Shown here piece after piece: positions 1 to 57,835 of a DNA stretch of 64,000 bases. Numbering within the stretch: position 1 is the stretch's first letter; each line of letters opens with the position of its first letter. The DNA is taken from IMG/VR virus record IMGVR_UViG_2609460125_000009. One strand, written 5' to 3'. Made by a program: the position numbers and the translations under genes. The notes under the pieces are model-generated. The model was not told the origin of the DNA. It saw only the letters and a list, made by a program, of their open reading frames with translations, and made no database searches. The stretch is from a virus (lineage: Duplodnaviria > Heunggongvirae > Uroviricota > Caudoviricetes).

Positions 1-972
1 AGCCTGCGTTACTACTACACTGCGAAACTCTCTTCGCGCATTGATGATATCGATCTCAACCTGGAGGATTTCGTTCAGCGTGTGAATGCCGATATCGTGA
101 ACAAAGTGGTTAACCTGGCGTCCCGTAACGCTGGCTTTATCAATAAGCGTTTTGACGGTGTGCTGGCAAGCGAGCTGGCTGACCCGCAGTTGTACAAAAC
201 CTTCACTGATGCCGCTGAAGTGATTGGTGAAGCGTGGGAAAGCCGCGAATTTGGTAAAGCTATCCGTGAAATCATGGCACTGGCTGACCTGGCTAACCGC
301 TATGTCGACGAGCAGGCTCCTTGGGTAGTCGCAAAACAGGAAGGTCGCGATGCTGACCTGCAGGCGATTTGCTCAATGGGCATCAACCTGTTCCGCGTGC
401 TGATGACTTACCTGAAACCGGTACTGCCGAAACTGACAGAACGTGCGGAAGCATTCCTGAATACGGAACTGACCTGGGATGGCATCCAGCAACCGCTGCT
501 GGGCCATAAAGTGAATCCGTTCAAAGCACTGTATAACCGTATCGACATGAAACAGGTGGAAGCATTGGTGGAAGCGTCTAAAGAAGAAGTGAAAGCTACT
601 ACCGCGCCAGTTACTGGCCCGCTGGCAGACGACCCGATTCAGGAAACCATCACCTTTGACGACTTTGCCAAAGTTGACCTGCGCGTGGCACTGATCGAAA
701 ACGCAGAGTTTGTTGAAGGTTCTGACAAACTGCTGCGCCTGACGCTGGATCTCGGCGGTGAAAAACGCAATGTCTTCTCAGGCATCCGTTCTGCTTATCC
801 AGACCCACAGGCACTGATTGGTCGTCACACCATTATGGTGGCTAACCTGGCTCCGCGTAAGATGCGCTTCGGCATCTCCGAAGGTATGGTGATGGCTGCT
901 GGCCCCGGCGGGAAAGATATCTTCCTGTTAAGCCCGGATGCTGGTGCTAAACCTGGCCACCAGGTTAAGTAA
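1..972 (+). CDS. metG: methionyl-tRNA synthetase, C-terminal part (5' end outside window)
   Basis: Frame open from base 1; translation matches the MetRS C-terminal anticodon-binding and tRNA-binding region as recalled (…[47 protein letters not shown]…); stop at 970-972. Confidence 0.9.
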
Positions 973-991
973 TTAAGCAACCTCTGTTCGC

Positions 992-1018
992 AATGCCCGG
1001 CAACACGCTGGGCATTTT
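992..1018 (+). terminator. rho-independent terminator after metG
   Basis: ATGCCC…GGGCAT stem followed by TTTT. Confidence 0.6.
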
Positions 1019-1055
1019 CATATAGACACAATCCCTCCTGATTTACACAAGCCCT

Positions 1056-1070
1056 AAAACAATTTGTTTT
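1056..1070. promoter_or_regulatory. palindromic operator-like site AAAACAA-T-TTGTTTT (motif family 1)
   Basis: Perfect inverted repeat; first occurrence marks the left edge of element-specific sequence. Confidence 0.5.
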
Positions 1071-1105
1071 CTATCTTTTGTTGATTGAGATAATAAGCCA
1101 CATAA

Positions 1106-1121
1106 GAAAACAAATTGTTTC
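1106..1121. promoter_or_regulatory. motif family 1 site GAAAACAAATTGTTTC
   Basis: Palindrome 13 bp upstream of the ATG at 1134, overlapping the RBS region. Confidence 0.55.
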
Positions 1122-1133
1122 GGAGTGGTTGAA

Positions 1134-1433
1134 ATGTTGAACATTACCCAAGCCTACCAGGTGGCATTGATCAGTTCATCTCATACATCAGAGGAAGATG
1201 CTCGCCGATTCATGATCGCAAGCAATGAGCTGGATTGGGTTTCACAAATTGATGGCGGTTGTATTGTCCACGCCGGGTTACAGGATGATGTCTGGAAAGA
1301 CGACTTGCGTCGATATGGTATATCCGAAGGCGCGATTGCTAACATTCAGAAAGTACTTGATGTAGGCTTTGACTCTGTACATTTTGATTGTGGTGCGCCG
1401 ATCGTTGAAGGGCTTGAGTGCTGGTGTTGGTAG
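1134..1433 (+). CDS. hypothetical early protein
   Basis: ORF with GGAG RBS; ATG 1134 preferred over the GTG at 1125; family 1 operator upstream. Confidence 0.45.
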   Translation: MLNITQAYQVALISSSHTSEEDARRFMIASNELDWVSQIDGGCIVHAGLQDDVWKDDLRRYGISEGAIANIQKVLDVGFDSVHFDCGAPIVEGLECWCW

Positions 1434-1564
1434 AGTGTATAAGCGGATCAATGAGTTACGGAAACAGTTAATAATGAGGAGCTTGTAATAAGCTGTATAC
1501 CCTAGAAAAGCTAGACTAGGGAATAAAATGACGTGAAACTGGGCGAGACAGTAAATAATTCCGA

Positions 1565-2794
1565 ATGATAATTGAACAAATAACCCCTTGCTCGGAGCTT
1601 GGAATGACTGATACCGCTTTTTCAAAATCGTTACAAAAAGAAGTCGATCCTGAGCAGTACTTGGCGCTAAAGAATTTAGATGACAGCTCGGTTCATGCTA
1701 TTGCCCGTGACGATATCATCTGCCCCATTTGCAAAGTTGGAGGTGGTTCGTTCGTTAGAGCCACTAGGAATGGTGGCTATCACAAGAAGGCGCATTTCAG
1801 ATTTACCGGTGAAGATGGTCAAGGCCATCATCCATCATGTGATTTCTATGGAGATAGACTAACATCTGAGGTGAAGCAGCACCTTGTCTCATTCACAAAA
1901 GATCGAACAAAGTATTCGCAGGTAATACGAAAGCTGGTCTGTGCCGGCATACAGGAAGGGATATTTACTCAAGAAAAAATGTGGCAGATGAGGGAATGGT
2001 TCTTCAATAAGCGAAAGGATTCCACATTTGAAATATGGTTAGAAAGCGAGCATTTAGACTGGCTTTATTATATTAGTGGGTTACGTGATGCATATCTAGC
2101 ATGGACAACTCCTGATATTCTACCTTTCGCGCCCATTCAGGTTACTGTGCCTGGTTTTTCTTGGAAGCGTGCGATTGACAAAGAGGTGCTAAGAGTTCAC
2201 ATCAAGACTCTCCAGCAATTGCGTGAAATTTCAGTCTCACATAGAGACATTGCTGTAATCTTAGAACACATAAACAATAATCGTGACCGCACAATTCTCG
2301 ATCCATCGCATTTGGAGGACGAGATAAGTAAGACCTATAAGCTTACTAGTTTTGTGATGGGCAATTACATTGAGTTTCAGACAAAAACGGTTAGCGACAG
2401 AGCATACGGGGAAGCTAAGTTTCTGGCATTTGCAGCACTTTTGTTGTTCGTGTCAGATTGGGACCTCAACATTGCTATTGGTAAGTTTTCTAAGATTGCC
2501 AGAGTGAAGGAGGTTGATGACATGCTGGCTGGTAATTTCATTGGTCTTAATCCTTACTTCCGATACGACCTGGCTAATGCAGTGAAGAGATTGCAGGATA
2601 ACTGGCCGATTGAATACCAAGAGTTGGAGCATTGGAATGTTGAGAAATCCATGCGTGACGCATATGAAAAGTGGCGTGCGACAGAGCCTGAATTCGCTCC
2701 ACCCCTATTGCCAGACTTGTATATTGCCAAACATGAGAAAGAAGTCGCACAAGACGAGCAAGTCAGGCAGTGGATTAAGAACGGGGATGTTTGA
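1565..2794 (+). CDS. hypothetical protein with N-terminal zinc-ribbon-like Cys/His cluster
   Basis: 409-aa ORF; CPICK…HHPSCDFYG motif; start uncertain (ATG 1604 has a better RBS). Confidence 0.5.
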   Translation: MIIEQITPCSELGMTDTAFSKSLQKEVDPEQYLALKNLDDSSVHAIARDDIICPICKVGGGSFVRATRNGGYHKKAHFRFTGEDGQGHHPSCDFYGDRLTSEVKQHLVSFTKDRTKYSQVIRKLVCAGIQEGIFTQEKMWQMREWFFNKRKDSTFEIWLESEHLDWLYYISGLRDAYLAWTTPDILPFAPIQVTVPGFSWKRAIDKEVLRVHIKTLQQLREISVSHRDIAVILEHINNNRDRTILDPSHLEDEISKTYKLTSFVMGNYIEFQTKTVSDRAYGEAKFLAFAALLLFVSDWDLNIAIGKFSKIARVKEVDDMLAGNFIGLNPYFRYDLANAVKRLQDNWPIEYQELEHWNVEKSMRDAYEKWRATEPEFAPPLLPDLYIAKHEKEVAQDEQVRQWIKNGDV

Positions 2795-2849
2795 GTGTAA
2801 TTAGCTTAATCAATCAGTTGATAATGGCGGTCACAATTTGATTCTTTTC

Positions 2850-3720
2850 TATAAGAATCCGTTGATCGCCACTACTCTTCTTCCATACCTGCAATCACAC
2901 CTTTAAATATCAATAAGTTATAGTTGTTTATACAATCAAGAAAACAACTGAATAACAGATCAACGAAACATCAACGCTTTCACCCGATTTGGTCTAAAAA
3001 ATTGACGTATTCACACATCACTTCTTATACCCGTAATTCTACGCAGCAGACAGCGCCACAGCGTCCAATTTTCACCACAGACGACCCAACACACTACCAA
3101 CAAAAACACACGCTCAAAATCGCTCCCGTTGCGTTACACAACCATATAAACAACTTATTTTCAGGCATAACAAAACAACTAAATAACACACATGCCATTC
3201 CCCAAAACAACCAACCTCTTTATGGCAGGCTACCGAAAAGACCCACCTCTTCTCCCCAGGCTACCGGACAACCAACCTAACTTTCACAGGCAATCCGAAA
3301 ACATTCATACGCGCGATACCCACGACACGCCATTACCCAAACAGCGAAGAAACACCAGAATCACTGAAACCCCAACGAAGCCTGTAACCGCAAGGTTTCT
3401 CTCAATCCCAAAAGACACGAAACATAACAATCACGGGAAACGCCATTACCCAATACACGAATAACTACAAAAGCCTTTCACACACTCCAGACAAACAACT
3501 CAAACACAATAACGAAAGGAATCGCCCACCTGCCATTACTCCATACACGGAGAAGAACAATCACCAAAACGACGAGAACACCCCATAGAAGAACCACCGC
3601 AAAACGAACGAAACCACATACACCGACAGAGAGAACAACACACCCAATTCACAAACAGAAATAGTCGCCGCATAGAACGTTCTGGAAGGGGTGAGCATTA
3701 ACGCCTATAGAGAGGTTGAG
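2850..3720 (+). other. strongly A+C-skewed non-coding region with degenerate direct repeats
   Basis: G and T are scarce on the given strand; no ORF >=60 aa on the opposite strand; repeated GCCATTACCCAA and CAGGCTACCG units. Confidence 0.6.
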
Positions 3721-3787
3721 ACAGATAAAACACGAAGAAAACACAACATGTATAGCGAACAAGACAGGTATGTATAAGTGGGGAGGG

Positions 3788-3811
3788 AAGGAGGGGTGTC
3801 GCCTCCTTTTT
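3788..3811 (+). terminator. terminator-like hairpin
   Basis: AAGGAGG…CCTCCTT stem followed by TTTTT. Confidence 0.4.
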
Positions 3812-3894
3812 CGTATTTATTCAACTCCTGATTTTATCCCCCGTAACACCCCTACGGTCAGCCTTCGATCCATACAGGGAAAAGGTTGCATCCC

Positions 3895-4015
3895 GCTACA
3901 GAAACGGCTGGGTTGCCTTCGGGGAACGGCTGGAGGTTTTCAGGGAAACGGTCGAGTTGCCTGTGTGGATTTCGGGAAAAGGCTCGATGCCGGTTCAGGA
4001 ACGGTGGAGTACCGG
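3895..4015. repeat. iteron-like direct repeats (GGGAAACGGC-type, ~21 bp period)
   Basis: Five tandem units: AGAAACGGCTGG, GGGAACGGCTGG, GGGAAACGGTCG, GGGAAAAGGCTCG, AGGAACGGTGG. Confidence 0.6.
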
Positions 4016-4341
4016 TATAGCGAGAGGGAGAGTTGCGGCTATCCACCTGTAATGTGCGGGAAGAAGAGAGGCGCTCACGTGCAGGCGGACTAACTTACCG
4101 TTGGACTCCCTCTGAATGCCCAGTTACAGCGTAATTGTGCCAGACAGCCAACGGGTCACAATCGATTTCAGTAGGTTTTCGGGGAGATGATTATTCTGCC
4201 CACCAGCCACCTTCGGCCACTAAATCAGAATAATGTAAAAAGTGTTCTCGGTACTGAACCTGAAAACTCACTGCCAAAACCACATTCACCGGAATAAAAT
4301 CCTTTTTCGCCTGTGCGTTATTGCGATAATAACACCATCAA

Positions 4342-4356
4342 GAAAACATGTTGTTT
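4342..4356. promoter_or_regulatory. motif family 1 site GAAAACATGTTGTTT
   Basis: Palindrome downstream of a GATAAT -10-like hexamer and upstream of the 4369 ORF. Confidence 0.5.
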
Positions 4357-4368
4357 AAGGATTGCTTT

Positions 4369-4698
4369 ATGTTTGCAAATATCGACATCAACCAAATCAA
4401 GAAATTAACTCAAAAAGAGTTTGACCAGTTCTATGAGCTGGAAGGTTGGTCTTCCACTCTGATTAATTCAAGATGGGTGCTGGAGCTGATGACTCGTGAT
4501 GATGCACCTGCTTTGATGATCAGCGACCTGGGTGAAGATGCTGACTTTATGGATATGAGCGAATTTTGTGTGGACACATACAACCGCAGCCAGAAGTACT
4601 ACTTCACATGCGATAGCGAAAATGACGTGATTTCTAAGGTCTATCTTCACCTCGTCCAGCATTGGGACGTTCAGGAGTTTCTTGAGGTATTCGCGTAA
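4369..4698 (+). CDS. hypothetical early protein
   Basis: ORF with AAGGA RBS; ATG 4369 preferred because the ATG at 4348 lies inside the operator. Confidence 0.45.
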   Translation: MFANIDINQIKKLTQKEFDQFYELEGWSSTLINSRWVLELMTRDDAPALMISDLGEDADFMDMSEFCVDTYNRSQKYYFTCDSENDVISKVYLHLVQHWDVQEFLEVFA

Positions 4699-4707
4699 TC
4701 CCAACCA

Positions 4708-4733
4708 AAGCCAGCATTGCTGGCTTAATTTCT
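4708..4733 (+). terminator. rho-independent terminator-like hairpin
   Basis: AAGCCAGC…GCTGGCTT stem. Confidence 0.5.
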
Positions 4734-4825
4734 CTATAGCCGCAGGGAAGAACCTGCATATCGCTCATGCACCTGATCATTATGCTTTGTAGCCGTTTTC
4801 TTATTGGTATTATTTACGCCATTGA

Positions 4826-4840
4826 GAAAACAAGTTGTTT
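4826..4840. promoter_or_regulatory. motif family 1 site GAAAACAAGTTGTTT
   Basis: Palindrome immediately upstream of the RBS of the 4852 ORF. Confidence 0.5.
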
Positions 4841-4851
4841 ACGGAGTTGTG

Positions 4852-5163
4852 ATGAAAAAATCATTGGTTCTTGGTCTGGACAAAGACCAGAAGAGAAAAG
4901 AGAAGCCTGCGCTGGTTGCTCAATTAACTTTGCTGGACATCGTTGCCAATGGAACCTCTATTCGTCTGTTCCGTGAAACAGCGGTGTCTTTCGATAAAAA
5001 CACCTTTACTCGTTATGTAATGAATGTTCGTCGCCAGCGTGGAAAAGGCTGGATGGCATTTCAAAGAATGTGGCCGGAACATCAGCTCGAACTGGCTTTG
5101 ATGGAAGTTAACCGCGTGGCCCAGCAAGAAATTCAGAGAGCATCAGTGATGGCAATAGCCTGA
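4852..5163 (+). CDS. hypothetical early protein (basic)
   Basis: ORF with GGAG RBS. Confidence 0.45.
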   Translation: MKKSLVLGLDKDQKRKEKPALVAQLTLLDIVANGTSIRLFRETAVSFDKNTFTRYVMNVRRQRGKGWMAFQRMWPEHQLELALMEVNRVAQQEIQRASVMAIA

Positions 5164-5197
5164 TAATGTGCAAGTGGTAATTAGTCGACAGTACGAC

Positions 5198-5226
5198 AGC
5201 CCCGCCATCCTTACGGGGCTTTTTTG
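5198..5226 (+). terminator. rho-independent terminator
   Basis: AGCCCCG…CGGGGCT stem followed by TTTTTT. Confidence 0.7.
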
Positions 5227-5230
5227 TATT

Positions 5231-5246
5231 GTAAGTACATACTTAC
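5231..5246. promoter_or_regulatory. motif family 2 palindrome GTAAGTACATACTTAC
   Basis: Perfect inverted repeat ~45 bp upstream of the 5290 ORF. Confidence 0.45.
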
Positions 5247-5289
5247 GATCATAGAATATAAAAATAACCAATACACTACGGAGAGTGAA

Positions 5290-5685
5290 ATGACCGTTAA
5301 ACGCGAAAAACTGACAGTTGATGTTTACTATGCCTCTGAAACCGCCGAAGGTAAGAATGTGGCAAAAATCACCGTTGTTACGTACAACACCGAAACTGGT
5401 GCCGAAGTACAGGCCAGTACGATCGTGCGTAAAGGTGATGCCTCCGGCGGCGAGTACGCGACTCAATACCAGTCCATTCTCGATGCAACTGACCCGCTGC
5501 TGCTGAAAATCGAGAACTACTTCCGCCAGGTTGATGAAGAGGTGTTTGAAACCATGATGAATATGGTTAACACCGTATTCGCCTCCAGCCTGAACACCAG
5601 CACCACCTGGATTGGCCAGTACGGTCTGCGCATTACCTCTGGCATTCCTGCCGACACCTTAATCCCTGAAAGCGTATTCGCTTAA
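5290..5685 (+). CDS. hypothetical protein
   Basis: ORF with GGAGAG RBS. Confidence 0.45.
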   Translation: MTVKREKLTVDVYYASETAEGKNVAKITVVTYNTETGAEVQASTIVRKGDASGGEYATQYQSILDATDPLLLKIENYFRQVDEEVFETMMNMVNTVFASSLNTSTTWIGQYGLRITSGIPADTLIPESVFA

Positions 5686-5695
5686 TCCTCTTTAA

Positions 5696-5722
5696 ATGGC
5701 GCGTAAACCGCGCCATTTTATT
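5696..5722 (+). terminator. rho-independent terminator
   Basis: ATGGCGCG…CGCGCCAT stem followed by TTTTATT. Confidence 0.65.
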
Positions 5723-5731
5723 AAGCCCGAT

Positions 5732-5746
5732 AACAATTTGTTTTCT
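5732..5746. promoter_or_regulatory. motif family 1 site AACAATTTGTTTTC
   Basis: Palindrome upstream of the 5803 ORF. Confidence 0.45.
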
Positions 5747-5802
5747 GCCTTATCTGATTTGTGAAAATGATTTCACTGAAGCAACTTAATAAGGAAACCA
5801 TC

Positions 5803-6177
5803 ATGGGACTTGATATCTATATCGAGACACAGCCTAAAAACGATCTGAATAACGAGGCATCCAGAAAGCGGGTTGCTTACTTCCGTAAGTTCAATGCGCT
5901 CGTTGGGTGGATGGAGCGCAACGTAGGTGAAGTCGAAAATTGTGAGCTTTTAGAATTAACGATGAATGACATTTGTTTTCTGAAGGCTCATTTGATGCAC
6001 ATAAACGAAAGTAATTGCGAAGAGTACTTGCCTACCCGGGAAGGTTTTTTCTTCGGCAGTCAGGAGTACGATGAAGGTTACTGGCATGATGTGGGGGAGT
6101 TGAAAGAGCTTGTGGAAGATCTGATTAAGAACCACGACTTTCACAATAACAGACTGACCTTCTGCGCCTGGTGGTAA
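5803..6177 (+). CDS. hypothetical early protein
   Basis: ORF with AAGGAAACC RBS; the longer frame from 5761 would start at GTG. Confidence 0.45.
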   Translation: MGLDIYIETQPKNDLNNEASRKRVAYFRKFNALVGWMERNVGEVENCELLELTMNDICFLKAHLMHINESNCEEYLPTREGFFFGSQEYDEGYWHDVGELKELVEDLIKNHDFHNNRLTFCAWW

Positions 6178-6179
6178 AT

Positions 6180-6323
6180 ATGGGCGATTTCAAGAAACGC
6201 CTGAAGGAGAGAGCCGAGATGGTCAGAAAGCGAAACGCCTCTTCTGTCATCAGATACGCAAGGCAGTTTAGTCGCAACAACAAATCAGTTGAGGAAAAGA
6301 TCCTTAGCGTAATCGGGCGATAA
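6180..6323 (+). CDS. small basic hypothetical protein (47 aa)
   Basis: Short ORF starting 2 nt after the stop of the previous gene; not in the supplied track because <60 aa. Confidence 0.3.
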   Translation: MGDFKKRLKERAEMVRKRNASSVIRYARQFSRNNKSVEEKILSVIGR

Positions 6324-6330
6324 TTATTAA

Positions 6331-6350
6331 GGCCACCAGCATTGGTGGTC
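6331..6350 (+). terminator. terminator-like hairpin GGCCACCAGCATTGGTGGTC
   Basis: Stem-loop without a strong T-run; near-identical copy at 6800. Confidence 0.4.
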
Positions 6351-6478
6351 TTAAATGACTTTTAATAACCGAAGGTTAGTTTGAAACCTGGCTATCAACT
6401 TCCAGAACCTTTCTTGTGTATTCAGCCTGTATTAACTTCTTTTATGCCTTATCTACACTGCGATAATTACACCAACAA

Positions 6479-6493
6479 GAAAACAACATGTTT
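6479..6493. promoter_or_regulatory. motif family 1 site GAAAACAACATGTTT
   Basis: Preceded by the conserved CGATAATTACACCAACAA promoter-like block. Confidence 0.5.
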
Positions 6494-6506
6494 ACGCAGT
6501 GAGGAT

Positions 6507-6794
6507 ATGCTCATGACTGATTTCACCATTACCCCTAAAGCACAAAATGTATTCCTTGAATCATGGCTGGACTTGCCGGAAACAGAACAGCAAGAAATGG
6601 ATCATGTGGATTATGACGAGCAGGTAAGCACGCGATTCTTCCACTTTGAGGGATGCGTTTACGACATTGCCGACTTCATGCGAGATGACCGCTTCCCTGA
6701 ATGGCACGCAAGCTATCCACTAAACGCCTTTGCCATGCTGATGATCCGTGTGGATGATTCAGGGGATACCATCGACATCGGTCTGCTCCACTAA
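6507..6794 (+). CDS. hypothetical early protein (acidic)
   Basis: ORF with GAGGAT RBS; start at 6507 or 6513. Confidence 0.45.
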   Translation: MLMTDFTITPKAQNVFLESWLDLPETEQQEMDHVDYDEQVSTRFFHFEGCVYDIADFMRDDRFPEWHASYPLNAFAMLMIRVDDSGDTIDIGLLH

Positions 6795-6799
6795 AGATT

Positions 6800-6823
6800 A
6801 AGGCCACCAATGCTGGTGGCCTT
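6800..6823 (+). terminator. terminator-like hairpin AAGGCCACCAATGCTGGTGGCCTT
   Basis: Perfect stem; near-identical to the 6331 hairpin. Confidence 0.45.
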
Positions 6824-6963
6824 AAATGACCATCCTGTTTCCCGCAGGCTAAAAACACCAACCTCTTACCTCCAGGCAACCGACAAACCCACCTGTTCCC
6901 GTCCGGCTACCGCAACTTTCCACTTTGACGCCTTATTCGTACAACGATAATTAACACCAACAA

Positions 6964-6977
6964 GAAAACAATTTGTT
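6964..6977. promoter_or_regulatory. motif family 1 site GAAAACAATTTGTT
   Basis: Preceded by the CGATAATTAACACCAACAA block. Confidence 0.5.
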
Positions 6978-6998
6978 ATTTACGATAAGGAATTAATC

Positions 6999-7481
6999 AT
7001 GAATTTTATCGCTACTGTAAACGCACCCGCACATGGCAATATCGCTGTAACGTTCTCTGACATTGAAAAACGAGTACTTGGTGCATGGCGCGACAATGAG
7101 ACGGTAGAACTGTCAGCACAAGAAAAATGCATTATTGCACGCGACATCATTGGCAATCGTCGTTACTCGCGGGTATTTGAGAAAGCATATGTGGTAAATT
7201 CTGGATTCGGAACGTTCGTCTTTCCGGTGCGCTCCGGGCGATTCTGCCAGTCCAAGCTGATTGAGTTCGCTACGCAGATTTCTGTCTGGATTAAAACTCA
7301 ATCGTCGTTCAAATTTTCCGACGATGAAGCAGTATCGCAGGGGATGCGGATCGCCAACAATGCGATTAAATGCAAAAACATTACGTATACCGCTGGCGTT
7401 GATACATGGAAACTGTTTTGCGCTAACTTTATGCTGAATGTATACGCAAGCAACCGCATCCACATCCTTGATGGCGTGTAA
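6999..7481 (+). CDS. hypothetical protein
   Basis: 160-aa ORF with AAGGA RBS. Confidence 0.5.
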   Translation: MNFIATVNAPAHGNIAVTFSDIEKRVLGAWRDNETVELSAQEKCIIARDIIGNRRYSRVFEKAYVVNSGFGTFVFPVRSGRFCQSKLIEFATQISVWIKTQSSFKFSDDEAVSQGMRIANNAIKCKNITYTAGVDTWKLFCANFMLNVYASNRIHILDGV

Positions 7482-7494
7482 CTGAGAAGAGGGC

Positions 7495-7620
7495 CAGAAA
7501 CGGCCCTTTCTCTACAGCCACCAGCTGCCGCAGGGAAATTTTCAGAAACGGCGAGGAACGTATTCATGAGCCGACGGGAAACGGCCAGGATTTTTTCGGG
7601 AAACGGCTGCATTCGCCTTT
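7495..7620. repeat. second iteron-like array (AGAAACGGCC / GGGAAACGGC units)
   Basis: Four or more direct repeats of the same core as the 3895-4015 array. Confidence 0.55.
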
Positions 7621-7725
7621 ATATAGAAAAAACATCGGGAAGCTGGTGGAATCCAACCAGCGGTTGTCGGACAGGTGAGCGGGGAAAATCATGATGACTT
7701 TCGTCGCCTGAGACATCCAGATTTC

Positions 7726-7780
7726 TTTCGTAGCGTAATCACATATGTGATTAAGTGGTGTGATTATGTGAAAAATCACG
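7726..7780. promoter_or_regulatory. cluster of perfect palindromes (TAATCACATATGTGATTA; ATTATGTG-N12-CACATAAT)
   Basis: Inverted repeats in a convergent intergenic region. Confidence 0.4.
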
Positions 7781-8071
7781 CGCACATAATACGAGAGCGG
7801 ATACGGAACAAAACAAAATGCCGATCCGCGCCGACAATTAAACGCGGATCACATAGCAAGAATAAAAGCCAATGATTAACCATACACCATAACGCAATAT
7901 AACGCGATTTAAGCGCGTTAATGCGCTAAGTAATGGGTATGTACTGGTAAGGATATAAAAGCGCGTCTATGGCGTTATTTTGGCGCTTATTTTTATGTTG
8001 TTGGTGTGAGTCAAAGACAATAAAAAACGCGCTAATGATGGCGCGTTATGGTGGGAGTATTGGAAACGAAA

Positions 8072-8093
8072 AAAGCGCCCATAGTGGGCGCTC
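8072..8093 (-). terminator. hairpin AGCGCCCA-TAG-TGGGCGCT downstream of the 8098 gene
   Basis: Perfect 8-bp stem; identical copy at 8568. Confidence 0.45.
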
Positions 8094-8097
8094 GATT

Positions 8098-8328
8098 TTA
8101 TTTATGTAAACTGATTTCAAATCCCATTTCTACAAACGCTTTTAACATTAAAAATATATCAGCGTCATTCACGTCTGCTTTTTTTCGCTCCTGGTCGCTC
8201 AATAAGTCAATTTTGCGCGTCGTTTCATCTATAAGCTCGACTGCGCGCCCAGCGTAACCAGCGATCCCAGCGATGCGATTAACATAATATTCGTTATGGA
8301 CGTTAACGCCAGCGATAAGAACAAACAT
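8098..8328 (-). CDS. hypothetical protein (76 aa)
   Basis: ORF in an AT-rich operon. Confidence 0.4.
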   Translation of the reverse strand: MFVLIAGVNVHNEYYVNRIAGIAGYAGRAVELIDETTRKIDLLSDQERKKADVNDADIFLMLKAFVEMGFEISLHK

Positions 8329-8348
8329 GATTAAGCTCCTTAAAAAAA

Positions 8349-8552
8349 TTAAATAGAATTTTGAAGTTTTCCGATTAATGCGCTTAAACGTAAGTATTCA
8401 CGTTTGCGCTTGCAATCTCGCTTGCTGTTAAGCAAATCAGAAAACGTAAAATTTAATTGGTCGCGTTGCGCGATTAAATCATCGATTAATTCCAGTTTAT
8501 AAGCGCGATACTTTGCGCGATATTCCGCGCGGATCTTGTCATAGCTGACCAT
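8349..8552 (-). CDS. hypothetical basic protein (67 aa)
   Basis: Start moved to the internal ATG with an AAAGGAG RBS; the longer track ORF would run through the 8568 hairpin. Confidence 0.4.
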   Translation of the reverse strand: MVSYDKIRAEYRAKYRAYKLELIDDLIAQRDQLNFTFSDLLNSKRDCKRKREYLRLSALIGKLQNSI

Positions 8553-8567
8553 TTTCAAAGCTCCTTT

Positions 8568-8589
8568 AAAGCGCCCATAGTGGGCGCTT
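8568..8589 (-). terminator. hairpin identical to the 8072 copy
   Basis: AAAGCGCCCATAGTGGGCGCTT between the 8601 gene stop and the next RBS. Confidence 0.45.
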
Positions 8590-8600
8590 GATTCCATTAA

Positions 8601-9251
8601 TTACGCTTTGAAAGCATCAGCTAAATAATTGTAGAAATCATTTTTAATGAAGCGATATTGCTGAGTACCAGCTTTCGCACTCCCAGCTCCTTTGACTTTT
8701 TCAACAAGTCCAAGACGTTCGCAAAGATTGATCAACTGGTTGGCTTGAGTATAGCCAGCGTCCAATTTAATTTCACACGCTTTTTTAGCTTCATTCATTA
8801 AATCGAAAACAGCGCCATTGGTGAACGTGTCGATCTCGTCGTTAATCATATCGATTAAAGCGAATACACGAGATCCTGACATATCAGCGATGGAATAAAC
8901 GCATTTACCAGATTTAATTGATTTAACCAGATAAACCAGTTTTTCCAGAGAATAACTATTAGTCATTGCATCACGGAAAAATACTTCTGGCGCTTGTTTG
9001 CTTGCTTTAATCGCATAGTAGAAAACAGAGCATAATTTTTCGTCTTCTACTGCGTTTACGACGTTGTTGATGAAGTAAGCAAGTTTAGTGGTCGCAGCTT
9101 GCATATTTGCTTTGTCTGCTTTAGTGTGCGTACCATTTTTATAATGTTCGTTATATGTTTGAGTTGCCAGATCTGCTTTTTCGCGCAGCTCGTCGGATAC
9201 AATAGATGCAGCTTCAATGATGGACTTTTTAGAAATGATAATGTTAGCCAT
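8601..9251 (-). CDS. hypothetical protein (216 aa), no recognisable motif
   Basis: First gene of an AT-rich operon; long AT-rich promoter region upstream (9252-9500). Confidence 0.5.
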   Translation of the reverse strand: MANIIISKKSIIEAASIVSDELREKADLATQTYNEHYKNGTHTKADKANMQAATTKLAYFINNVVNAVEDEKLCSVFYYAIKASKQAPEVFFRDAMTNSYSLEKLVYLVKSIKSGKCVYSIADMSGSRVFALIDMINDEIDTFTNGAVFDLMNEAKKACEIKLDAGYTQANQLINLCERLGLVEKVKGAGSAKAGTQQYRFIKNDFYNYLADAFKA

Positions 9252-9502
9252 GATAATTTTTCCTTATGTAAATTTAAAATTTATTGTCGTTAGCGTCTTC
9301 GCTTTCGACGAGTTCAATTATCGATACGCGAAAAAAGATTGCAAGTGTTTTTTTTAAATTTTTTGCAGGGATGAAAGTCCTAGAAATAAAAGCGAGATCG
9401 TCGAAGGTGTTCCCTAAATAAATAATCAATTCGGGCTTTTAACCTTATATATATTTAGGTTATTTGATTTGTAGATATAAAGAAGTGATGTGAAAAATAA
9501 TA

Positions 9503-9524
9503 ACCGGACTTAGCCGGTTATTAA
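9503..9524 (-). terminator. hairpin AATAACCGG…CCGGTTATT
   Basis: Stem-loop downstream of the 9535 gene. Confidence 0.45.
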
Positions 9525-9534
9525 CCTTATAGAT

Positions 9535-9843
9535 TTATTGAACAGACTCTACAGCCTTACGATTGGTGTCAAATAGCGCATCAACGAACTGTGCCGATGA
9601 CTCGCTAGATTCGCAATCCAACATTGCCCGTTCTTCATTTGCCACTTTCTTACACAGTTCCACATTCTCACCTATCGCTTTTCCTGCTTTTACGGCTGCC
9701 GAAAATTGATACATGCAAACTGATACATTCTGAGACGTTGAGCACACGTCATTCATCAGCGACTGAATGACAGGCTTATAGTCCATTGCATTTGCCGCAA
9801 CTGAGCAAAGTAAAAATAATGGTGGTAACAATATCGATTTCAT
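9535..9843 (-). CDS. secreted cysteine-rich small protein
   Basis: N-terminal hydrophobic signal-like segment (MKSILLPPLFLLCSVAANA); six Cys residues. Confidence 0.5.
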   Translation of the reverse strand: MKSILLPPLFLLCSVAANAMDYKPVIQSLMNDVCSTSQNVSVCMYQFSAAVKAGKAIGENVELCKKVANEERAMLDCESSESSAQFVDALFDTNRKAVESVQ

Positions 9844-9846
9844 AAC

Positions 9847-10371
9847 TCAAAAAGGCAAAATTCGTTCAACCCAATCGAACAAAACAACTATTTTTCTACC
9901 GTTCTCGACACGTAGTGTAACCTGACAAGCATCTGCGCCTGCTGACACCCCCTCAATTTCACGGCCATCCGCCATGTACACCCTTATAGATTTGTTTGCT
10001 TTGTAGGCTTGGTTGCAAATTGCAAAAAAATCGCGGCGTGATGGCCGATTATCGACATAATCAGGGTGAACTGTTAATCGACCTTTGAAATCGTGAGCGA
10101 TACTGTCAACCACACCTGATTCAATTGTACTAATGCGTTCAAGTGGGAGCCTTATACGATTTTCTTTGTCAAAAGGGGCTGGGCAAAGGTCAACTTTGTT
10201 GCGAGATGGCATGAGGCCATAAACGTACATGCAAAACGCCTGACCATCTTCGAGAGTGACCCTTACAGGAATTTGTTCTCTGCGCCAGAACATCAGTAGT
10301 TTTTCAACGTTAGTGTAATCTCGCGGCAAGAGTTCAGCTTGGATACCGTAGGTAATATCTTTGGTTGTCAT
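9847..10371 (-). CDS. hypothetical protein
   Basis: Start moved to the internal ATG (MTTKDITYG…) to avoid overlap with the upstream lipoprotein gene. Confidence 0.4.
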   Translation of the reverse strand: MTTKDITYGIQAELLPRDYTNVEKLLMFWRREQIPVRVTLEDGQAFCMYVYGLMPSRNKVDLCPAPFDKENRIRLPLERISTIESGVVDSIAHDFKGRLTVHPDYVDNRPSRRDFFAICNQAYKANKSIRVYMADGREIEGVSAGADACQVTLRVENGRKIVVLFDWVERILPF

Positions 10372-10375
10372 GTCA

Positions 10376-10798
10376 TCACAGAGTTGTTGGCAGAATGTCG
10401 ATGTTACCAGAATTGCTGGTGAACACCCTGAACGCTTTTGTGTCTCCATTCTTCAGAGTCGTTTCTCGCTCTTGACGAGCGGGGTTTAGAGCACATAAAC
10501 CTGCACCTTCAAGAGATGCACCCACAATTAATTCTCCGGCATTTAAATGGAAAGTCGCTTTTTCGCCTGTAGCCAGTTTTGCGACAGTTTCGCCATTGAT
10601 GAAAATGGAAGCATCACATCCAGCTCCTACAAAACCTGTGTCTCTCATTACCACCAACGTAGCTGGCGCTGCGCTTTGATACTTGAACACTTTGGCCTGC
10701 GGTGCTGGTTTGGCGTCATGGATTGATATTGGACGTGATTGGCACGCGGTAAGCATCAACACTGGTAACGTTAGTAGAGGGAGAAGCGAGTATTTCAT
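10376..10798 (-). CDS. putative lipoprotein
   Basis: Signal peptide with lipobox (…VLMLTAC); start at MKYSLL. Confidence 0.5.
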   Translation of the reverse strand: MKYSLLPLLTLPVLMLTACQSRPISIHDAKPAPQAKVFKYQSAAPATLVVMRDTGFVGAGCDASIFINGETVAKLATGEKATFHLNAGELIVGASLEGAGLCALNPARQERETTLKNGDTKAFRVFTSNSGNIDILPTTL

Positions 10799-10866
10799 GT
10801 TAGTTTTAGAACAGAAAGTGAACAGTATGGGAGACTTCATCTTTGTCTCCCTAATTGATAGCGTGA

Positions 10867-11145
10867 TTATTTTAATCTGCTTAATAGCGTTTCGAGATCT
10901 TCCTTTGTCATATTAGAGTTCTCATAGATACGCATGATTTTCTCACGAGTCTTAGCGGAAGCCCCGACAGAAGATATAACCTTGTCAAAGTCGGCCATTG
11001 TCAATTGTTCCAGAATGGTATTAATGACTTCAGCCTTAGACATTTTGATATTTTTTTCTTTTAGTTTCACTTGAAACTTTCCAAGTTTGTCATTGGCCTT
11101 ATCAGACAATGCTACCTGACAGTAAGTTGTTTTCTTTTCACTCAT
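10867..11145 (-). CDS. hypothetical small protein (92 aa)
   Basis: ORF immediately downstream of the helicase gene. Confidence 0.4.
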   Translation of the reverse strand: MSEKKTTYCQVALSDKANDKLGKFQVKLKEKNIKMSKAEVINTILEQLTMADFDKVISSVGASAKTREKIMRIYENSNMTKEDLETLLSRLK

Positions 11146-11147
11146 AA

Positions 11148-12707
11148 CTAATCTCGTTTCAGAACTCCAAAATCGAATGCTCCATCAATAGGCAATACAC
11201 CTTCTGCAAAGCCAGGTGTGGTGTCGATGATGTGTTTTCGCTCATAAGAGTGAGACAACAGGTATTTGTTGCTAATGTCAATGAAATCAGTGATAAAACA
11301 CACGTTTGCCTGATTTTTTTTGGCTCGTAAGCCACGACCGACACGTTGTCTCATTTCAACTTCTGCTTTCCCACCACCAGCAAGAATGACCGCACCAACG
11401 CTTGGCACATCAACACCAACATCCAGAATAGTCGAGCCTATTAAAACATCTATTTCACCAGACGCTAAACTGTTCAGCTTTGCTTGCCTTGTCGTCTGGT
11501 TAGATTCCCCATAGATGAAATCAACTCTAAGACCTGACTCCTTCATCATCTCCATCAGGATTTGCCCGTGGCGTTTAAGACGAACCAGAGTCATGCAGTT
11601 GAGTGAATGTTGCTTATAAAGCAATGCCTCGCGCACTATGGCCTCGTTACGTCCCAAATTATACACGATCCCCAACTGATAAGCCTTTTGGTAGGCGGTG
11701 CTCATACCAACTCTAAAATTGAGATGTTTGTTGGCAAGTTCGGCCTTGATTCTGGCCTCGTCTGGCTTGTAGGCAACTTTATGATAAAGGAAGTACGGCT
11801 TTGCCAGAATGCCTCGATCAATCAGGTACTTTTCTGTGACTTTAATTTCAATTCGCCCGGCCACCGCCATCAGGCGCATGTTGGCTTCCGTCGAATCCTT
11901 CATGAACGGCGTGGCTGTAAGCGCCAGACGATAGTCTGCGTTCACACATAATCTGGCGATGTCATAGAAATTTGAGCCTGAAGACTCATGCGCCTCTTCC
12001 AGAATAAGAAGAGAGACACTTGAAAGGAAGCGTTTCACCAACTCCCGACGTTTGAGGTGGTAGCTTTTCTTATCTGGTGTTGCATCGCGTGGTGGTTCTT
12101 CGAGGAAACTTGCAAGAGTTTGAACTGTAGCGACGTTGATATGTCGTGATACCTGGAACTCACCCGAGCCAATGACTCCAACCTTTTGGTCTTTTAACCA
12201 CGGTTCGCCATTTTTGGCGCGGTAGTCGATGGATCTCTGGAAGTTTTCGGCCATTTGAAACATCAGAACAGAGCGGGTTGTTAAAAATAATGTCATTCGA
12301 CCGATACGTGCAGCTGCTTTGCAGGCAACATTAGATTTCCCGCCACCAGTAGCGATCTGCGCAATCATCATTCCCTCTCGAACCAGTGTTTCCACAGTCT
12401 GATCCTGATACGCATAATCAGGATTGTATGGGAATGGGTTAACCGCCGGATTTGGTTTACCAAGCGCCGGGGCTTTGTCTTTGCGGATATGAACACATTT
12501 GATGCCCGCCTTGTTCAAGTTCGCCGCTACAGGCTTGGCAAAGCCAGCAGGGAACGAGTTTTTACTCCAGTTGAACATCGTGCTTGTGCCCTTCCAGTCG
12601 CCAGTCTCGACTTCGTAGCTCAACATTTGCTGCACCAGTTGCTTTACCTTGTCATCTGCGCCAGAAATAAGCGCATTTACTGCGTTAGATACAATCCGAA
12701 CAGTCAT
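11148..12707 (-). CDS. superfamily-2 DEAD/DEAH-box helicase
   Basis: Motif I ATGGGKS, motif II LILEEAHE, motif III TATP, motif VI QRVGRGLR. Confidence 0.75.
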   Translation of the reverse strand: MTVRIVSNAVNALISGADDKVKQLVQQMLSYEVETGDWKGTSTMFNWSKNSFPAGFAKPVAANLNKAGIKCVHIRKDKAPALGKPNPAVNPFPYNPDYAYQDQTVETLVREGMMIAQIATGGGKSNVACKAAARIGRMTLFLTTRSVLMFQMAENFQRSIDYRAKNGEPWLKDQKVGVIGSGEFQVSRHINVATVQTLASFLEEPPRDATPDKKSYHLKRRELVKRFLSSVSLLILEEAHESSGSNFYDIARLCVNADYRLALTATPFMKDSTEANMRLMAVAGRIEIKVTEKYLIDRGILAKPYFLYHKVAYKPDEARIKAELANKHLNFRVGMSTAYQKAYQLGIVYNLGRNEAIVREALLYKQHSLNCMTLVRLKRHGQILMEMMKESGLRVDFIYGESNQTTRQAKLNSLASGEIDVLIGSTILDVGVDVPSVGAVILAGGGKAEVEMRQRVGRGLRAKKNQANVCFITDFIDISNKYLLSHSYERKHIIDTTPGFAEGVLPIDGAFDFGVLKRD

Positions 12708-38503: not shown

Positions 38504-41500
38504 ATGTGGTACAGGGAAGGTACTATCACATTTACACAGGGCAGCAATACTCTGGTTGGGGCAGGGACAGCCTGGAACGTAACAGCTAATGGTGTGTTGC
38601 CGGGGATGATCGTCATTGGCCCCGACAATAAGCTGTATGAGATCAAGCGCGTAACCAGTGATACGAACATTGTTCTCTCAGAACCTTATACCGGCGAAAC
38701 TCAGTCTGAAGTTCCGTGCCGAATCATTACGACCTATGAAGGCGACTTAACACAGTTTAGCGCGCGCTTTACAGCACTAATGTCGCGTATGTCGGCTGAT
38801 TCCAAGTCCATGCGCAGTTGGTTGACTGCTCTGGATGAGGTGACAATCGAGCGTGAAGACGGTACAGAAGTGACCGTTAAGCCGCTAATGCAGATCGTCA
38901 ACGAGCACAACGAAAACGTTGAGTGGTATAAAAATAACACTGACGCGATTGATGCTGCTGGCGACAAAGCTCGTGAGGCGGCGGCCAGTGCTGCCGCAGC
39001 AGCAGAAAGCGCCAATATCGCTGGAGAAAAAGCCTCTCAAGCGTCTCAAAGTGCATCCGCTGCAGAGTCCTCAAAAAGCGCGGCGGCCACAAGTGCCGGT
39101 GCCGCGAAAACGTCTGAAACGAATGCTGCAGCGTCACAAAAATCTGCAGCCACTTCTGCATCCACCGCGACCACGAAGGCGTCAGAAGCTGCCACCTCAG
39201 CCCGGGATGCGGCGGCCTCAAAAGAGGCAGCGAAATCATCAGAAACGAGCGCAGCCTCGAGCGCCAGTAATGCCGCTTCCTCGGCAACGGCGGCAGGAAA
39301 TTCCGCGAAGGCGGCAAAAACGTCCGAGACGAACGCCAGGTCTTCTGAAACGGCAGCGGGACAGAGCGCCTCGGCTGCGGCAGGCTCAAAAACAGCGGCT
39401 GCGTCGTCTGCCAGTGCCGCGTCAACAAGTGCCGGGCAGGCCTCAGCCAGTGCCACCGCCGCCGGAAAATCGGCAGAAAGTGCCGCATCGTCTGCTTCAA
39501 CAGCCACAACGAAGGCTGGCGAAGCCACTGAACAGGCCAGCGCAGCAGCGAGGTCTGCTTCCGCAGCGAAGACATCCGAAACGAACGCGAAAGCGTCGGA
39601 AACCCGTGCAGAATCCTCAAAAACGGCAGCCGCATCGTCCGCCAGTTCGGCAGCGTCATCGGCATCATCTGCGTCTGCTTCAAAAGATGAGGCGACCAGA
39701 CAGGCGTCAGCAGCGAAGGGCAGCGCCACGACGGCATCCACGAAAGCAACAGAGGCGGCAGGCAGTGCGACGGCAGCATCTCAGAGCAAAACTGCTGCTG
39801 AATCCGCTGCGACCCGTGCGGAAGCTGCTGCTGATCGTGCTGAAGAGATTGCCGGTGCAGTTGCGATGGAAGACGCAAGCCTTACAACTAAAGGTGTTGT
39901 GAAACTTAGCAGTGCTGTCGACAGCACCAGTGAATCGCTGGCCGCAACGCCAAAAGCAGTTAAAGTAGTCAATGACAATGCGAACAGCAGGGTGCCATCT
40001 AACCGAAAAATTAACGGGAAAGCACTGACTGCGGATATCACATTAACGCCGAAAGATATTGGTACTTTAAATTCAATAACGATGTCTTTCTCTGGCGGGG
40101 CCGGGTGGTTCAAACTGGCTACTGTTACAATGCCACAAGCGAGTTCCATCGTTTACATCGCATTGATTGGTGGCGCTGGTTACAACGTCGGCTCCCCACA
40201 TCAGGCAGGCATTTCAGAACTGGTTCTACGAGCAGGCAATGGAAACCCCAAAGGGATTACAGGTGCTTTGTGGAAGCGTACAGCTGTCGGATTAACGAAT
40301 TTCGCCTGGATCAACACATCCGGCGATACATATGATATTTACGTTGAGATTGGCAATTATGCGACTCGTGTAAATATCCATTGGGATTGTACTGCAAATG
40401 CGACAGTTTCTATTTATACATCGCCAACATATTCAGCTAGTAAGCCTTCCAGCGTTACCGATGGTGTTGTTTATACGATGTATAGCACACATCAGAAACC
40501 GACGCCGTTAGATATTGGAGCACTGCCAACAACCGGAGGAACAGTTTCAGGTCCGTTGTCTGTTACTGGTGGGATCACCGGAACATTAAATGGTAATGCA
40601 AGTACAGCAACGAAATTGCAGACGGCAAGATCTATCGGTGGAGTTGGTTTCGACGGTTCTGCAAATATCAACCTTCCAGGTGTAAATACTACGGGTAATC
40701 AGAACACCACTGGTAATGCTGCAACTGCTACAAAACTTCAGACGGCAAGAACTATCGGCGGCGTGAGCTTTGATGGTACTGCGAATATTAATTTGCCAGG
40801 TGTTAATACGACTGGTAATCAGAATACAACGGGCAACGCGGCTACTGCTACGAAGTTGCAGACTGCGCGTACTATCAATGGGGTGTCGTTTGACGGCTCG
40901 GCAAATATTTCCTTGTCGCCAGCAAATATAGGTTGCCCGGCATCTCCTACTGGTTGGTTAACTACAGGAAGTAATGGCGGAGCAATAACAACAGCACAGT
41001 TAGTGACGTTATTGCAAAATAATGGAGCATTTAACACAAAGTCATGGATTGCTCGATGTGCTTGGGCCTATGCCAATAGTGCAACCATACCAAATAGTGA
41101 AACTGGTTGTGGCGTTATTCCATTGGCAGGAGCTGTTATAGAGGTATTTAATAACGGTAGTAGCTCAAACAATTATACGATCCGTATAACAACGGCCACA
41201 ACGACGAGTGTCTCTGGTGCTCTCACTAATGCGGAGTTTATCTATGTATTTAATGGCACAGATTATTCTCCGGGATGGCGAAGAGTATATAACACGAAAA
41301 ACAAACCAACAGCCTCTGATGTCGGTGCATTACCTCTTACCGGTGGTACATTATCTGGAGGTTTGACATCTTCTGGCGAGATCATTTCAAAATATGCAAA
41401 TGGTTTCCGCATTGCTTACGGTAGCTTTGGGTTCTTTATCCGTAATGATGGATCGAACACATATTTCATGCTAACAGCATCAGGAGACACATTAGGTTCA

Positions 41501-57806: not shown

Positions 57807-57812
57807 TTTTAA

Positions 57813-57835
57813 CGGCTCACAGGAGCCGTTTTTAT
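57813..57835 (+). terminator. rho-independent terminator
   Basis: ACGGCTC…GAGCCGT stem followed by TTTTT. Confidence 0.65.

Follow-up and report, generated by a model that had tools for sequence, protein, structure and literature searches.

What might an intergenic stretch of viral DNA be doing if one of its strands is rich in A and C over several hundred nucleotides (nt)? The question is raised by positions 2850–3811 of the DNA analysed here, a 64,000-nt stretch of IMG/VR record IMGVR_UViG_2609460125_000009 (Caudoviricetes) that is referred to below as the window. The window matches phage-plasmids of the SSU5/pHCM2/pECOH89 type, the best plasmid having 97.8% identity and phage Cyrano of Escherichia coli LF82 having 97.6% identity to it. 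Clinical E. coli, Klebsiella, Enterobacter and Salmonella Typhi commonly harbour phage-plasmids of this type, which carry extended-spectrum β-lactamase genes. In RefSeq the upstream gene stops at 2794 and the next gene begins at 4348, which leaves a gap of ~1.5 kb (2795–4347) without annotation; the RefSeq (PGAP) records inspected place no feature in it, one phage record annotates two "hypothetical proteins" there, and no account of the region was found in the literature searched (SSU5, pHCM2, phage-plasmids, Nickievirus and phage sponge RNAs). The A+C-rich tract within this gap is non-coding, strand-specific selection on it is supported, and it forms the upstream half of a conserved cassette that belongs to the phage side of SSU5-type phage-plasmids and not to the plasmid side.

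Composition, conservation and coding potential of the tract

An earlier sequence-only reading of the window had described a 0.9-kb stretch that was almost entirely A and C. Windowed composition and skew confirm a strong strand bias: the top 600-nt window holds 74.5% A+C, where the mean of the whole window is 50.3% (sd 3.3%, z 7.4), the best 600-nt window elsewhere in the 64 kb reaches 59.3%, and in 300-nt windows starting at 2851–3301 the GC skew is −0.42 to −0.51 and the AT skew +0.20 to +0.54. The maximal A+C segment spans 589 nt (3073–3661; 74.8% A+C, with base fractions of A.414, C.334, G.119 and T.132). The wording "almost entirely" was thus too strong for an actual content of ~73–75%, and the extent shrinks to a biased core of ~0.6–0.7 kb, as 2850–3040 is T-rich or mixed in composition and 3661–3784 is A+G-rich and T-poor. 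Since these last ~120 nt before a hairpin at 3785–3811 are A+G-rich, T-depletion is the property common to the whole stretch. For the flanking genes the A+C-biased strand is the sense strand; no global replication skew switch occurs at the cassette, and elsewhere in the window the coding strand is purine-loaded in the ordinary way.

A distant-mode search found the homologous gap in 839 PLSDB plasmids, mostly from Klebsiella (431), Escherichia (224), Enterobacter (90) and Salmonella (49), with further copies in Citrobacter, Cronobacter and Buttiauxella, so that the cassette is conserved in at least seven enterobacterial genera. Among enterobacterial SSU5-like phage records the region is present in 12 of 12, the same 12 that have TerL at ≥95% identity. 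Conservation sets in abruptly at ~2816, and the genes upstream differ up to that point: depending on the lineage, the neighbour is a 409-aa protein, a GIY-YIG nuclease, Ivy, or DUF262 with type I restriction-modification. Across the homologous ~700 nt, A+C is maintained at 65–72% while nucleotide identity drops to 59–69%, a divergence similar to that of the neighbouring 160-aa protein (67–82% identical across the same lineages). When alignment columns are sorted by conservation, A+C is 73% in the highly conserved, 65% in the intermediate and 55% in the least conserved columns, and in the conserved columns A is selected more strongly than C. In the E. coli clade two repeat copies have been swapped for unrelated sequence that is A+C-rich all the same. 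A bias that peaks in conserved columns is the reverse of a mutational skew and argues for selection over mutational drift; the data support strand-specific selection on the tract.

No protein-coding gene accounts for this conservation. The earlier reading had reported no minus-strand open reading frame (ORF) of at least 60 aa, which is borne out inside the region, where the longest has 41–45 aa. On the plus strand, long stop-free stretches are expected because T is rare, and those present shift position and frame between genera. Per lineage, 7–9 of 11–12 indels are not multiples of 3; variable sites are flat by codon position (24/20/18 and 16/12/15 in 26 distinct E. coli-clade copies); and the ORFs at 2924–3280 (ORF118) and 3192–3464 (ORF90) are each broken in 12 of these 26 near-identical copies. 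The tract ORFs have no Pfam or PHROG match, while all flanking genes tested match PHROGs. With no frame conserved across genera, non-triplet indels, broken ORFs and no family match, a protein-coding gene is ruled out and the tract is non-coding. The plus-strand ORFs at 2924–3280, 3192–3464 and 3716–4093 are artefacts, as had been supposed, and a conserved coding frame, a finding that would have spoken against the earlier reading, was sought across genera and is absent.

Anatomy, operator sites and expression of the cassette

The conserved region extends beyond the tract on both sides and can be divided as follows, with the promoter-like sites being consensus or position weight matrix (PWM) matches whose conservation was scored in 18 diverse copies.

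~2816–4297: the whole conserved non-coding cassette, ~1.5 kb, with the A+C tract as its upstream half
2816–2875, plus strand: left edge with CGTTGAY repeats, the most conserved block (0.91–0.97 plurality identity in 19 diverse copies)
2818–2823, plus strand: TTGAYA of a promoter-like TTGAYA-N16, kept in 18/18 diverse copies
2825–2833 and 2863–2871: invariant 9-bp inverted repeat, TGGCGGTCA and TGATCGCCA, the only consensus helix
2925–2978: degenerate copy of the promoter module, with repeat families and an operator half-site AAGAAAACAA at 2938–2947
3002–3031, plus strand: promoter-like TTGACG-N18-TATACC leading into the tract, in 18/18 diverse copies
3073–3661, plus strand: core A+C tract (74.8% A+C), non-coding, with no predicted structure
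3145–3160, plus strand: orphan promoter-operator module, a −10-like TATAAA (TATATT in other genera) with the 13-bp palindrome AAACAACTTATTT at 3148–3160
3194–3560, plus strand: dispersed direct repeats GCCATT(A/C)C(C/T)C..ATAC(A/G)CGGAGAAGAAC, starting at 3194, 3329, 3442 and 3532
3204–3300, plus strand: three tandem ~30-nt units, ACCnACCTCTT-N7-CAGGCTACCGAAAAG, kept in most lineages
3661–3784, plus strand: A+G-rich, T-poor tail, partly replaced or indel-rich between clades, with low conservation at 3716–3775
3785–3811, plus strand: hairpin GGAGG..CCTCC followed by T5, terminator-like in the E. coli clade only
3871–4017, plus strand: six ~22-nt iteron-like units, C(A/G)GGRAAMGGCTGG, the motif occurring again at 5040 and 7576/7598
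4134–4161, minus strand: promoter-like TTGTGA-N16-TGgCACAAT, directed leftward through the iteron-like units to the tract, in 13/18 copies
4289–4364, plus strand: promoter-operator module of the next gene; the cassette ends at ~4297, and homology resumes here in L063, an IMG/VR relative described below
6823–6916, plus strand: second set of three ~30-nt units, with a terminator hairpin on one side and the promoter module of the 160-aa gene on the other

Several of these elements share motifs with one another. The module at 2925–2978 contains two inverted CGTTGAY motifs, at 2959 and 2970, and a minus-strand sigma70-like promoter site in 17/18 copies, and the −10 part of the 3002–3031 site also resembles a degenerate GCCAT...ATAC repeat unit. 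The leftward site at 4161–4134 is the top-scoring conserved site of the PWM scan. At the orphan module a plus-strand PWM promoter hit at ~3139 is found in 10/18 copies; downstream of the 3148–3160 operator there is no Shine-Dalgarno sequence, start codon or ORF.

The repeats noticed in the earlier reading are real. Those of the GCCATTAC type lie at 3329, 3442 and 3532, ~10 nt from where they had first been placed, and a fourth copy lies at 3194. The full ~27-nt GCCATTAC...CGGAGAAGAAC unit is present in 4–7 copies in a single orientation (six in the pHCM2, SSU5 and Enterobacter lineages) at an irregular spacing of 90–135 nt, and the GGA within its motif is lost in the E. coli clade. The tandem ~30-nt units of 3204–3300 do recur, at 6823–6916, and this second set is retained in lineages without the cassette; in the first set two units are absent in Buttiauxella and the third is unrecognisable in Klebsiella. 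No overall periodicity is seen in the tract, and a decayed tandem array is rejected. As for the terminator-like hairpin with which the stretch had been said to end, a stem and T5 are present at 3785–3811 (five core G-C pairs with an A-U and G-U extension; −16.7 kcal/mol, z −2.4), but a strong hairpin is seen in the E. coli clade only: the consensus of 13 diverse copies folds at −7.8 kcal/mol with mostly G.U pairs and a covariation term of −0.08, and the U-tract is interrupted outside that clade. Downstream of the 160-aa gene there is also a second array of iteron-like units (GGGAAACGGC, 7530–7620), so that two such arrays flank a cluster of small early genes (4348–7481).

The operator at the orphan module is one of a dispersed set. 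The 13-bp palindrome AAACAAnTTGTTT (≤1 mismatch) has 13 sites in the window (1057, 1108, 3148, 4344, 4828, 5731, 6481, 6966, 16081, 16106, 46427, 49357 and 60032), of which 12 lie ~20–50 nt upstream of an ORF start, after a −10 element that often reads TGcGATAAT; the terminase operon is among those so equipped. pECOH89 has four further copies within its first 50 kb. Judged by sequence and placement, the sites look like a putative dispersed-operator immunity network in the style of phage P1. As in the P1 C1 repressor network with its ≥17 operators, one short operator stands before many operons, here with one copy at the tract; it differs from the P1 Op sites in being palindromic and unrelated in sequence.

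Expression of the locus in lysogeny can be read from RNA-seq of the Cyrano lysogen of LF82 (PMC9928086, Table S1). CYRAN_103, which corresponds to 2924–3280 of the window, has 0 fragments per kilobase per million reads (FPKM) in LB medium and ≤14 in other conditions, and the moron CYRAN_102 directly upstream in Cyrano has ~57 FPKM in LB and more elsewhere (PMC9928086, Table S1). The value of 0 FPKM implies that the tract is silent in lysogeny and that read-through ends ahead of it, and this silence fits control of the tract by a repressor. The most expressed locus of the prophage by far, at about 3,000–11,000 FPKM, is CYRAN_43 (Cyrano 40268–40822, minus strand), an extra gene between glutaredoxin and integrase that is absent from the window, where the gap at 57806–58017 measures 210 nt; complementarity between the CYRAN_43 region and the tract is at the level of chance.

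RNA properties of the tract and its counterparts in distant phages

A transcript of the tract would have little structure. Plus-strand RNA of 3038–3815 is predicted to fold at −127 kcal/mol, or −0.16 per nt, and minus-strand RNA is less stable than its own shuffles. Consensus folding of diverse copies over 3100–3750 is near zero on both strands and without covariation, with a structure conservation index of 0.02–0.17 on the plus and 0.07–0.30 on the minus strand. A scan of 1–12000 against Rfam 15 at E≤1 gave no match save two chance ones elsewhere. The Rfam result and the near-zero consensus fold speak against a known structured RNA family and against a structured non-coding RNA, the latter being one of the proposals of the earlier reading.

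The same reading had also suggested a protein-sponging RNA, and for the known factors this did not hold up. The sequence AUACACGGAGAA resembles the SELEX (in vitro selection) consensus of CsrA; a CsrA sponge was rejected, as GGA is not enriched in the tract (5 occurrences against 5.8 expected) and is lost from the motif in the E. coli clade. Occurrences of (ARN)3 number 4 against 7.3 expected, and across 18 lineages GGA/ANGGA, (ARN)n, ACA and YC show no consistent excess over composition, which likewise disposes of enrichment for Hfq (ARN)n, MazF ACA and Rho YC dinucleotides. A sponge for GcvB was dismissed because the mean R1 duplex energy of −21.1 kcal/mol compares with −19.7 ± 0.9 for composition-matched shuffles and the best site is matched by many others elsewhere in the window. 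Only chance matches were found to an antisense partner elsewhere in the window and in a 15-base pattern scan of genome contigs; a likeness of GGCGGTCAC to RfaH ops or sigma54 sites was dismissed on inspection, as key positions differ; and a type III toxin-antitoxin RNA of the ToxI kind was rejected, there being only three 30-nt units and no Pfam match for six downstream proteins. What the tract does offer is the two longest runs with C≥25% and G≤15% on either strand of the 64 kb (2992–3289 and 3378–3575). Over 3040–3780 the C/G ratio is 2.1, and the tract is of the type of a Rho utilization (rut) region, which calls for ≥80 nt of untranslated, unstructured RNA with C well above G. If transcribed, it would thus be a Rho substrate.

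Counterparts of the tract can be recognised in more distant phages. The Stenotrophomonas, Rhizobium and Pseudomonas relatives are ~110-kb siphophages with 55–58% TerL identity that share a synteny of tract, small genes, opposite-strand helicase and terminase, each with an unannotated gap at the corresponding place. In Stenotrophomonas phage ANB28, which was scanned genome-wide, the gap holds the top sense-strand A+C window of the genome (68.8% over 400 nt, z 5.6; the next reaches 61%) and is followed by short repeat units. RHEph10 and nickie were scanned over 16–20 kb around the expected position. Rhizobium phage RHEph10 has 300 nt at 71% A+C, preceded by three ATGTTGACAG direct repeats and two TGTTGAC-type copies, and Pseudomonas phage nickie has a 557-nt T-poor tract, then a 13-bp hairpin with a U-run (−20.8 kcal/mol) and ≥7 AGCCGCGG repeats. 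In 4/4 phage lineages the flanking genes have the A/C-rich strand as their sense strand. Sequence homology of the tract to the ANB28, nickie and RHEph10 gaps was sought with nhmmer and none was found, so that they have only composition and layout in common; a "CnTAGAG" motif common to SSU5-type and distant phages was suggestive by eye, but is not statistically clustered.

Candidate functions and known systems

A role in plasmid replication can be set aside. In pECOH89 the replicon lies at 1–1900 and consists of a RepB-family gene with ≥16 TATGCTGTCAGCGG iterons (5 upstream, ≥11 downstream) and, just upstream, a DnaA box and a GATC-rich cluster; the rep gene is ~33 kb from the tract. In the window the TATGCTGTCAGCGG iteron (≤3 mismatches) occurs 4 times against 4.5 expected by chance, with none near the tract. 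A natural plasmid, NZ_CP083480, carries IS1 inside the tract (target duplication 3568–3576), and the IMG/VR element L063, a 97–100% identical relative when compared with L061, is without a 5.5-kb block made up of the upstream cargo and the whole cassette, a deletion that probably arose by recombination between repeated promoter modules. As oriR lies elsewhere with unrelated iterons, and both the IS1 insertion and the 5.5-kb deletion are tolerated, a phage function is indicated rather than a plasmid one. A plasmid oriR or incompatibility locus is accordingly rejected, and that part of the earlier proposal falls.

The explanation that we put forward, tentatively and as a possibility short of an even chance, is a cis-acting, repressor-controlled, strand-specific early control region or lytic-origin cassette made up of the tract, the hairpin and the six 22-nt repeats, which would probably serve phage replication. 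Relief of repression at induction or infection would allow rightward transcription of the tract into an untranslated RNA that is poor in G and U and unable to fold, and the displaced DNA strand would likewise be unable to fold. This structure-free, strand-specific zone and the adjacent repeats could then act in cis, either as an early control region or as the phage lytic origin. The region would be opened or primed by transcription, and the helicase, primase and Pol III that the element itself encodes would enter at the single-stranded zone; by annotation the replisome genes of the element include a DnaB-like helicase, primase, Pol III alpha, ligase, 5'-3' exonuclease and UvsW-like helicase. 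In a variant, the RNA would instead run leftward from 4161–4134, where it would be G-rich (GC skew ~+0.45) and in the R-loop-prone orientation. Two steps on which this depends are inferred, namely that the promoter-like sites drive transcription and that the iteron-like units belong to an origin. The earlier suggestion of an RNA or priming role nevertheless retains its plausibility given a non-coding stretch, strand-specific selection, coupling to an iteron-like array and a promoter-operator module.

A number of points weigh against such a cassette. The promoter calls are consensus matches only, and lytic-phase transcription and replication are putative. The repeats have neither an AT-rich unwinding element nor an initiator gene beside them, and the iteron-like units also occur at 5040 and 7530–7620. 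RNA made in the sense direction would have a negative GC skew (about −0.45), which is unfavourable to R-loops and ideal for Rho. Only in the E. coli clade and nickie is the 3' hairpin convincing as a terminator, the leftward promoter-like site is absent from 5/18 lineages, and the distant look-alikes match in composition and layout only. Lastly, the cassette is absent from at least one relative, L063, so that the element can persist without it.

Among the rivals, a trans-acting long non-coding RNA (lncRNA) of the lytic phase is unlikely, if worth serious consideration. It would be a discrete, structure-free molecule of ~0.65–0.8 kb acting as decoy or sponge for a single-stranded-RNA binder, which might be Rho, an RNase, a defence sensor or a protein of the phage that recognises GCCAUUAC-type repeats. 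A promoter-operator module without an ORF, a sense strand that is the A/C-rich one in all four phage lineages, a composition kept where sequence is not, a terminator hairpin that closes the tract in the E. coli clade and nickie, the 4–7 direct copies of the ~27-nt motif in one orientation and the very weak predicted fold (−0.16 kcal/mol per nt) would all suit it. They have to be set against 0 FPKM in lysogens, the lack of consistent excess over composition of CsrA, Hfq, MazF and Rho dinucleotide motifs, the absence of specific GcvB pairing and of complementarity to the rest of the window, a variable motif copy number with loss of the motif GGA in the E. coli clade, a 3' end that is not conserved, and the proneness of an untranslated C-rich RNA to Rho termination itself. 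The wider form of this proposal, a composition-defined viral lncRNA that would be early lytic, G/U-poor and unfoldable and would act as a trans decoy for a host factor (Rho, a ribonuclease or an RNA-sensing defence) throughout the ~110-kb siphophage lineage, seems quite unlikely. Rho is also at the centre of a different proposal, to which we give a similarly low likelihood, namely that the tract is a Rho-loading zone acting as an orientation-specific insulator that blocks read-through from variable cargo genes, active in lysogens, into the repeats and the repressed early genes. It would explain why the two longest C-rich, G-poor runs of the window lie here (C/G 2.1), why ~57 FPKM in CYRAN_102 gives way to 0 FPKM over the next 360 nt in LB, and why the upstream neighbours are variable cargo genes. 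Yet a rut site requires ~80 nt and not 600, and termination needs no sequence conservation, repeated motifs or internal promoter-operator module; YC dinucleotides are not above composition, the Cyrano signal is zero already before most of the tract, and selection in the conserved columns acts more strongly on A than on C.

A further proposal places the function in double-stranded DNA, as a binding-site array for a phage or plasmid protein (a regulator titration, centromere-like or handcuffing locus) whose strand bias is a by-product of asymmetric sites in the same orientation, and this we also consider rather improbable. Direct repeats are certainly present, both as three 30-nt units spaced at ~three helical turns and as GCCATTAC units; the 30-nt units also lie upstream of a promoter, after a terminator, at 6823–6916, where a DNA-level role would be natural; and the left edge has its CGTTGAY motifs and invariant inverted repeat, along with operator half-sites. 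The bias, however, continues through the spacers between the repeats, the E. coli clade has replaced two repeat copies with different, still A+C-rich sequence, and distant phages retain the composition and not the motifs, while the irregular 90–135-nt spacing of the GCCATTAC units, the lack of an adjacent partition or Rep gene and the location of plasmid maintenance functions elsewhere also speak against it. That the tract has no function at all, being a decaying pseudogene or the product of mutational skew from frequent single-strandedness, is highly improbable. Its long stop-free plus-strand stretches, variable between lineages, and the survival of the element after IS1 insertion and deletion of the region would be in keeping with decay, but 59–69% identity across genera, near the divergence of the neighbouring 160-aa gene, would not; a bias that peaks in the best-conserved columns and falls to about background (55%) in the least conserved ones is the opposite of a mutational signature, and the extreme composition recurs independently in ANB28 and RHEph10. 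The remaining probability lies with mixtures of these readings and with unknowns.

Comparison with known systems helps to place the proposed control or origin cassette. ColE1 RNA II, T4 oriF/oriG, the T7 primary origin and lambda ori (which needs pR transcription) all have a regulated promoter directed toward or lying next to origin repeats, as is putatively the case here, and the several hundred nt of untranslated transcript at transcription- or R-loop-primed origins are likewise proposed for the tract. The element encodes a UvsW-like helicase and a 5'-3' exonuclease, which are functions of R-loop and primer processing at R-loop-primed origins, and firing would depend on loss of the lysogenic repressor, as for P1 oriL and lambda. 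Unlike transcription-primed origins, the tract lacks an AT-rich unwinding element, and its origin activity is putative; its sense-direction GC skew is opposite to that favouring R-loops; its RNA would be structure-free, in contrast to the highly structured ColE1 RNA II; and its biased zone is ~10x longer than known strand-asymmetric unwinding elements.

The RNA-based rivals have models of their own. With the CsrB/CsrC and CrcZ sponges the tract would share repeated single-stranded motifs in a putative non-coding RNA, but its GGA/ANGGA and (ARN)n are not enriched as in CsrB/CsrC-type sponges. With the AgvB-type anti-small RNAs, which mimic the C/A-rich targets of GcvB, it shares the C/A-richness that GcvB recognises; it is ~10x longer, pairs with GcvB no better than shuffles do, and is silent in lysogens, unlike the AgvB type, which prophages express. 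It resembles rut regions such as lambda tR1 in being C-rich, G-poor, unstructured and untranslated, and differs from them in length (600 nt against ~80 nt), motif-level conservation, the internal promoter-operator module and in being A-rich rather than pyrimidine-rich.

The cassette is widespread in clinically relevant elements and compositionally unusual. If it is a lytic origin or early control region, it would give a handle on the induction and replication of these phage-plasmids, and as an origin it would have an unusual architecture in which a 0.6-kb strand-biased, structure-free zone replaces the AT-rich unwinding element. If its product is a trans-acting RNA, a new kind of viral non-coding RNA would have to be recognised, one whose defining property is composition and not fold. 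Since composition and layout recur in distant phages without common sequence, the question can be tested in several host systems.

As to the neighbourhood, the upstream 409-aa protein (1565–2794; phrog_12525), whose gene adjoins the cassette directly in some lineages only, has an N-terminal CPIC...HHPSC motif but no Pfam match, so that it is a putative zinc-ribbon protein, as its earlier label would plausibly have it. Just upstream are a full methionyl-tRNA synthetase gene (metG in pECOH89) and an ApbC/MinD-like ATPase gene (82–972 of the window and upstream; CYRAN_99/100 in Cyrano), the latter being among the genes expressed in the LF82 lysogen (PMC9928086). On the other side, the second iteron-like array is followed by ~0.7 kb of non-coding DNA (7640–8340) that is rich in GCGC-containing repeats and hairpins. 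Terminator-like hairpins at 6327–6354 and 6798–6825 are built around Chi or its complement (GGCCACCAGCATTGGTGG), and Chi (GCTGGTGG) itself occurs 16 times in the 64 kb, against ~2 expected from length alone.

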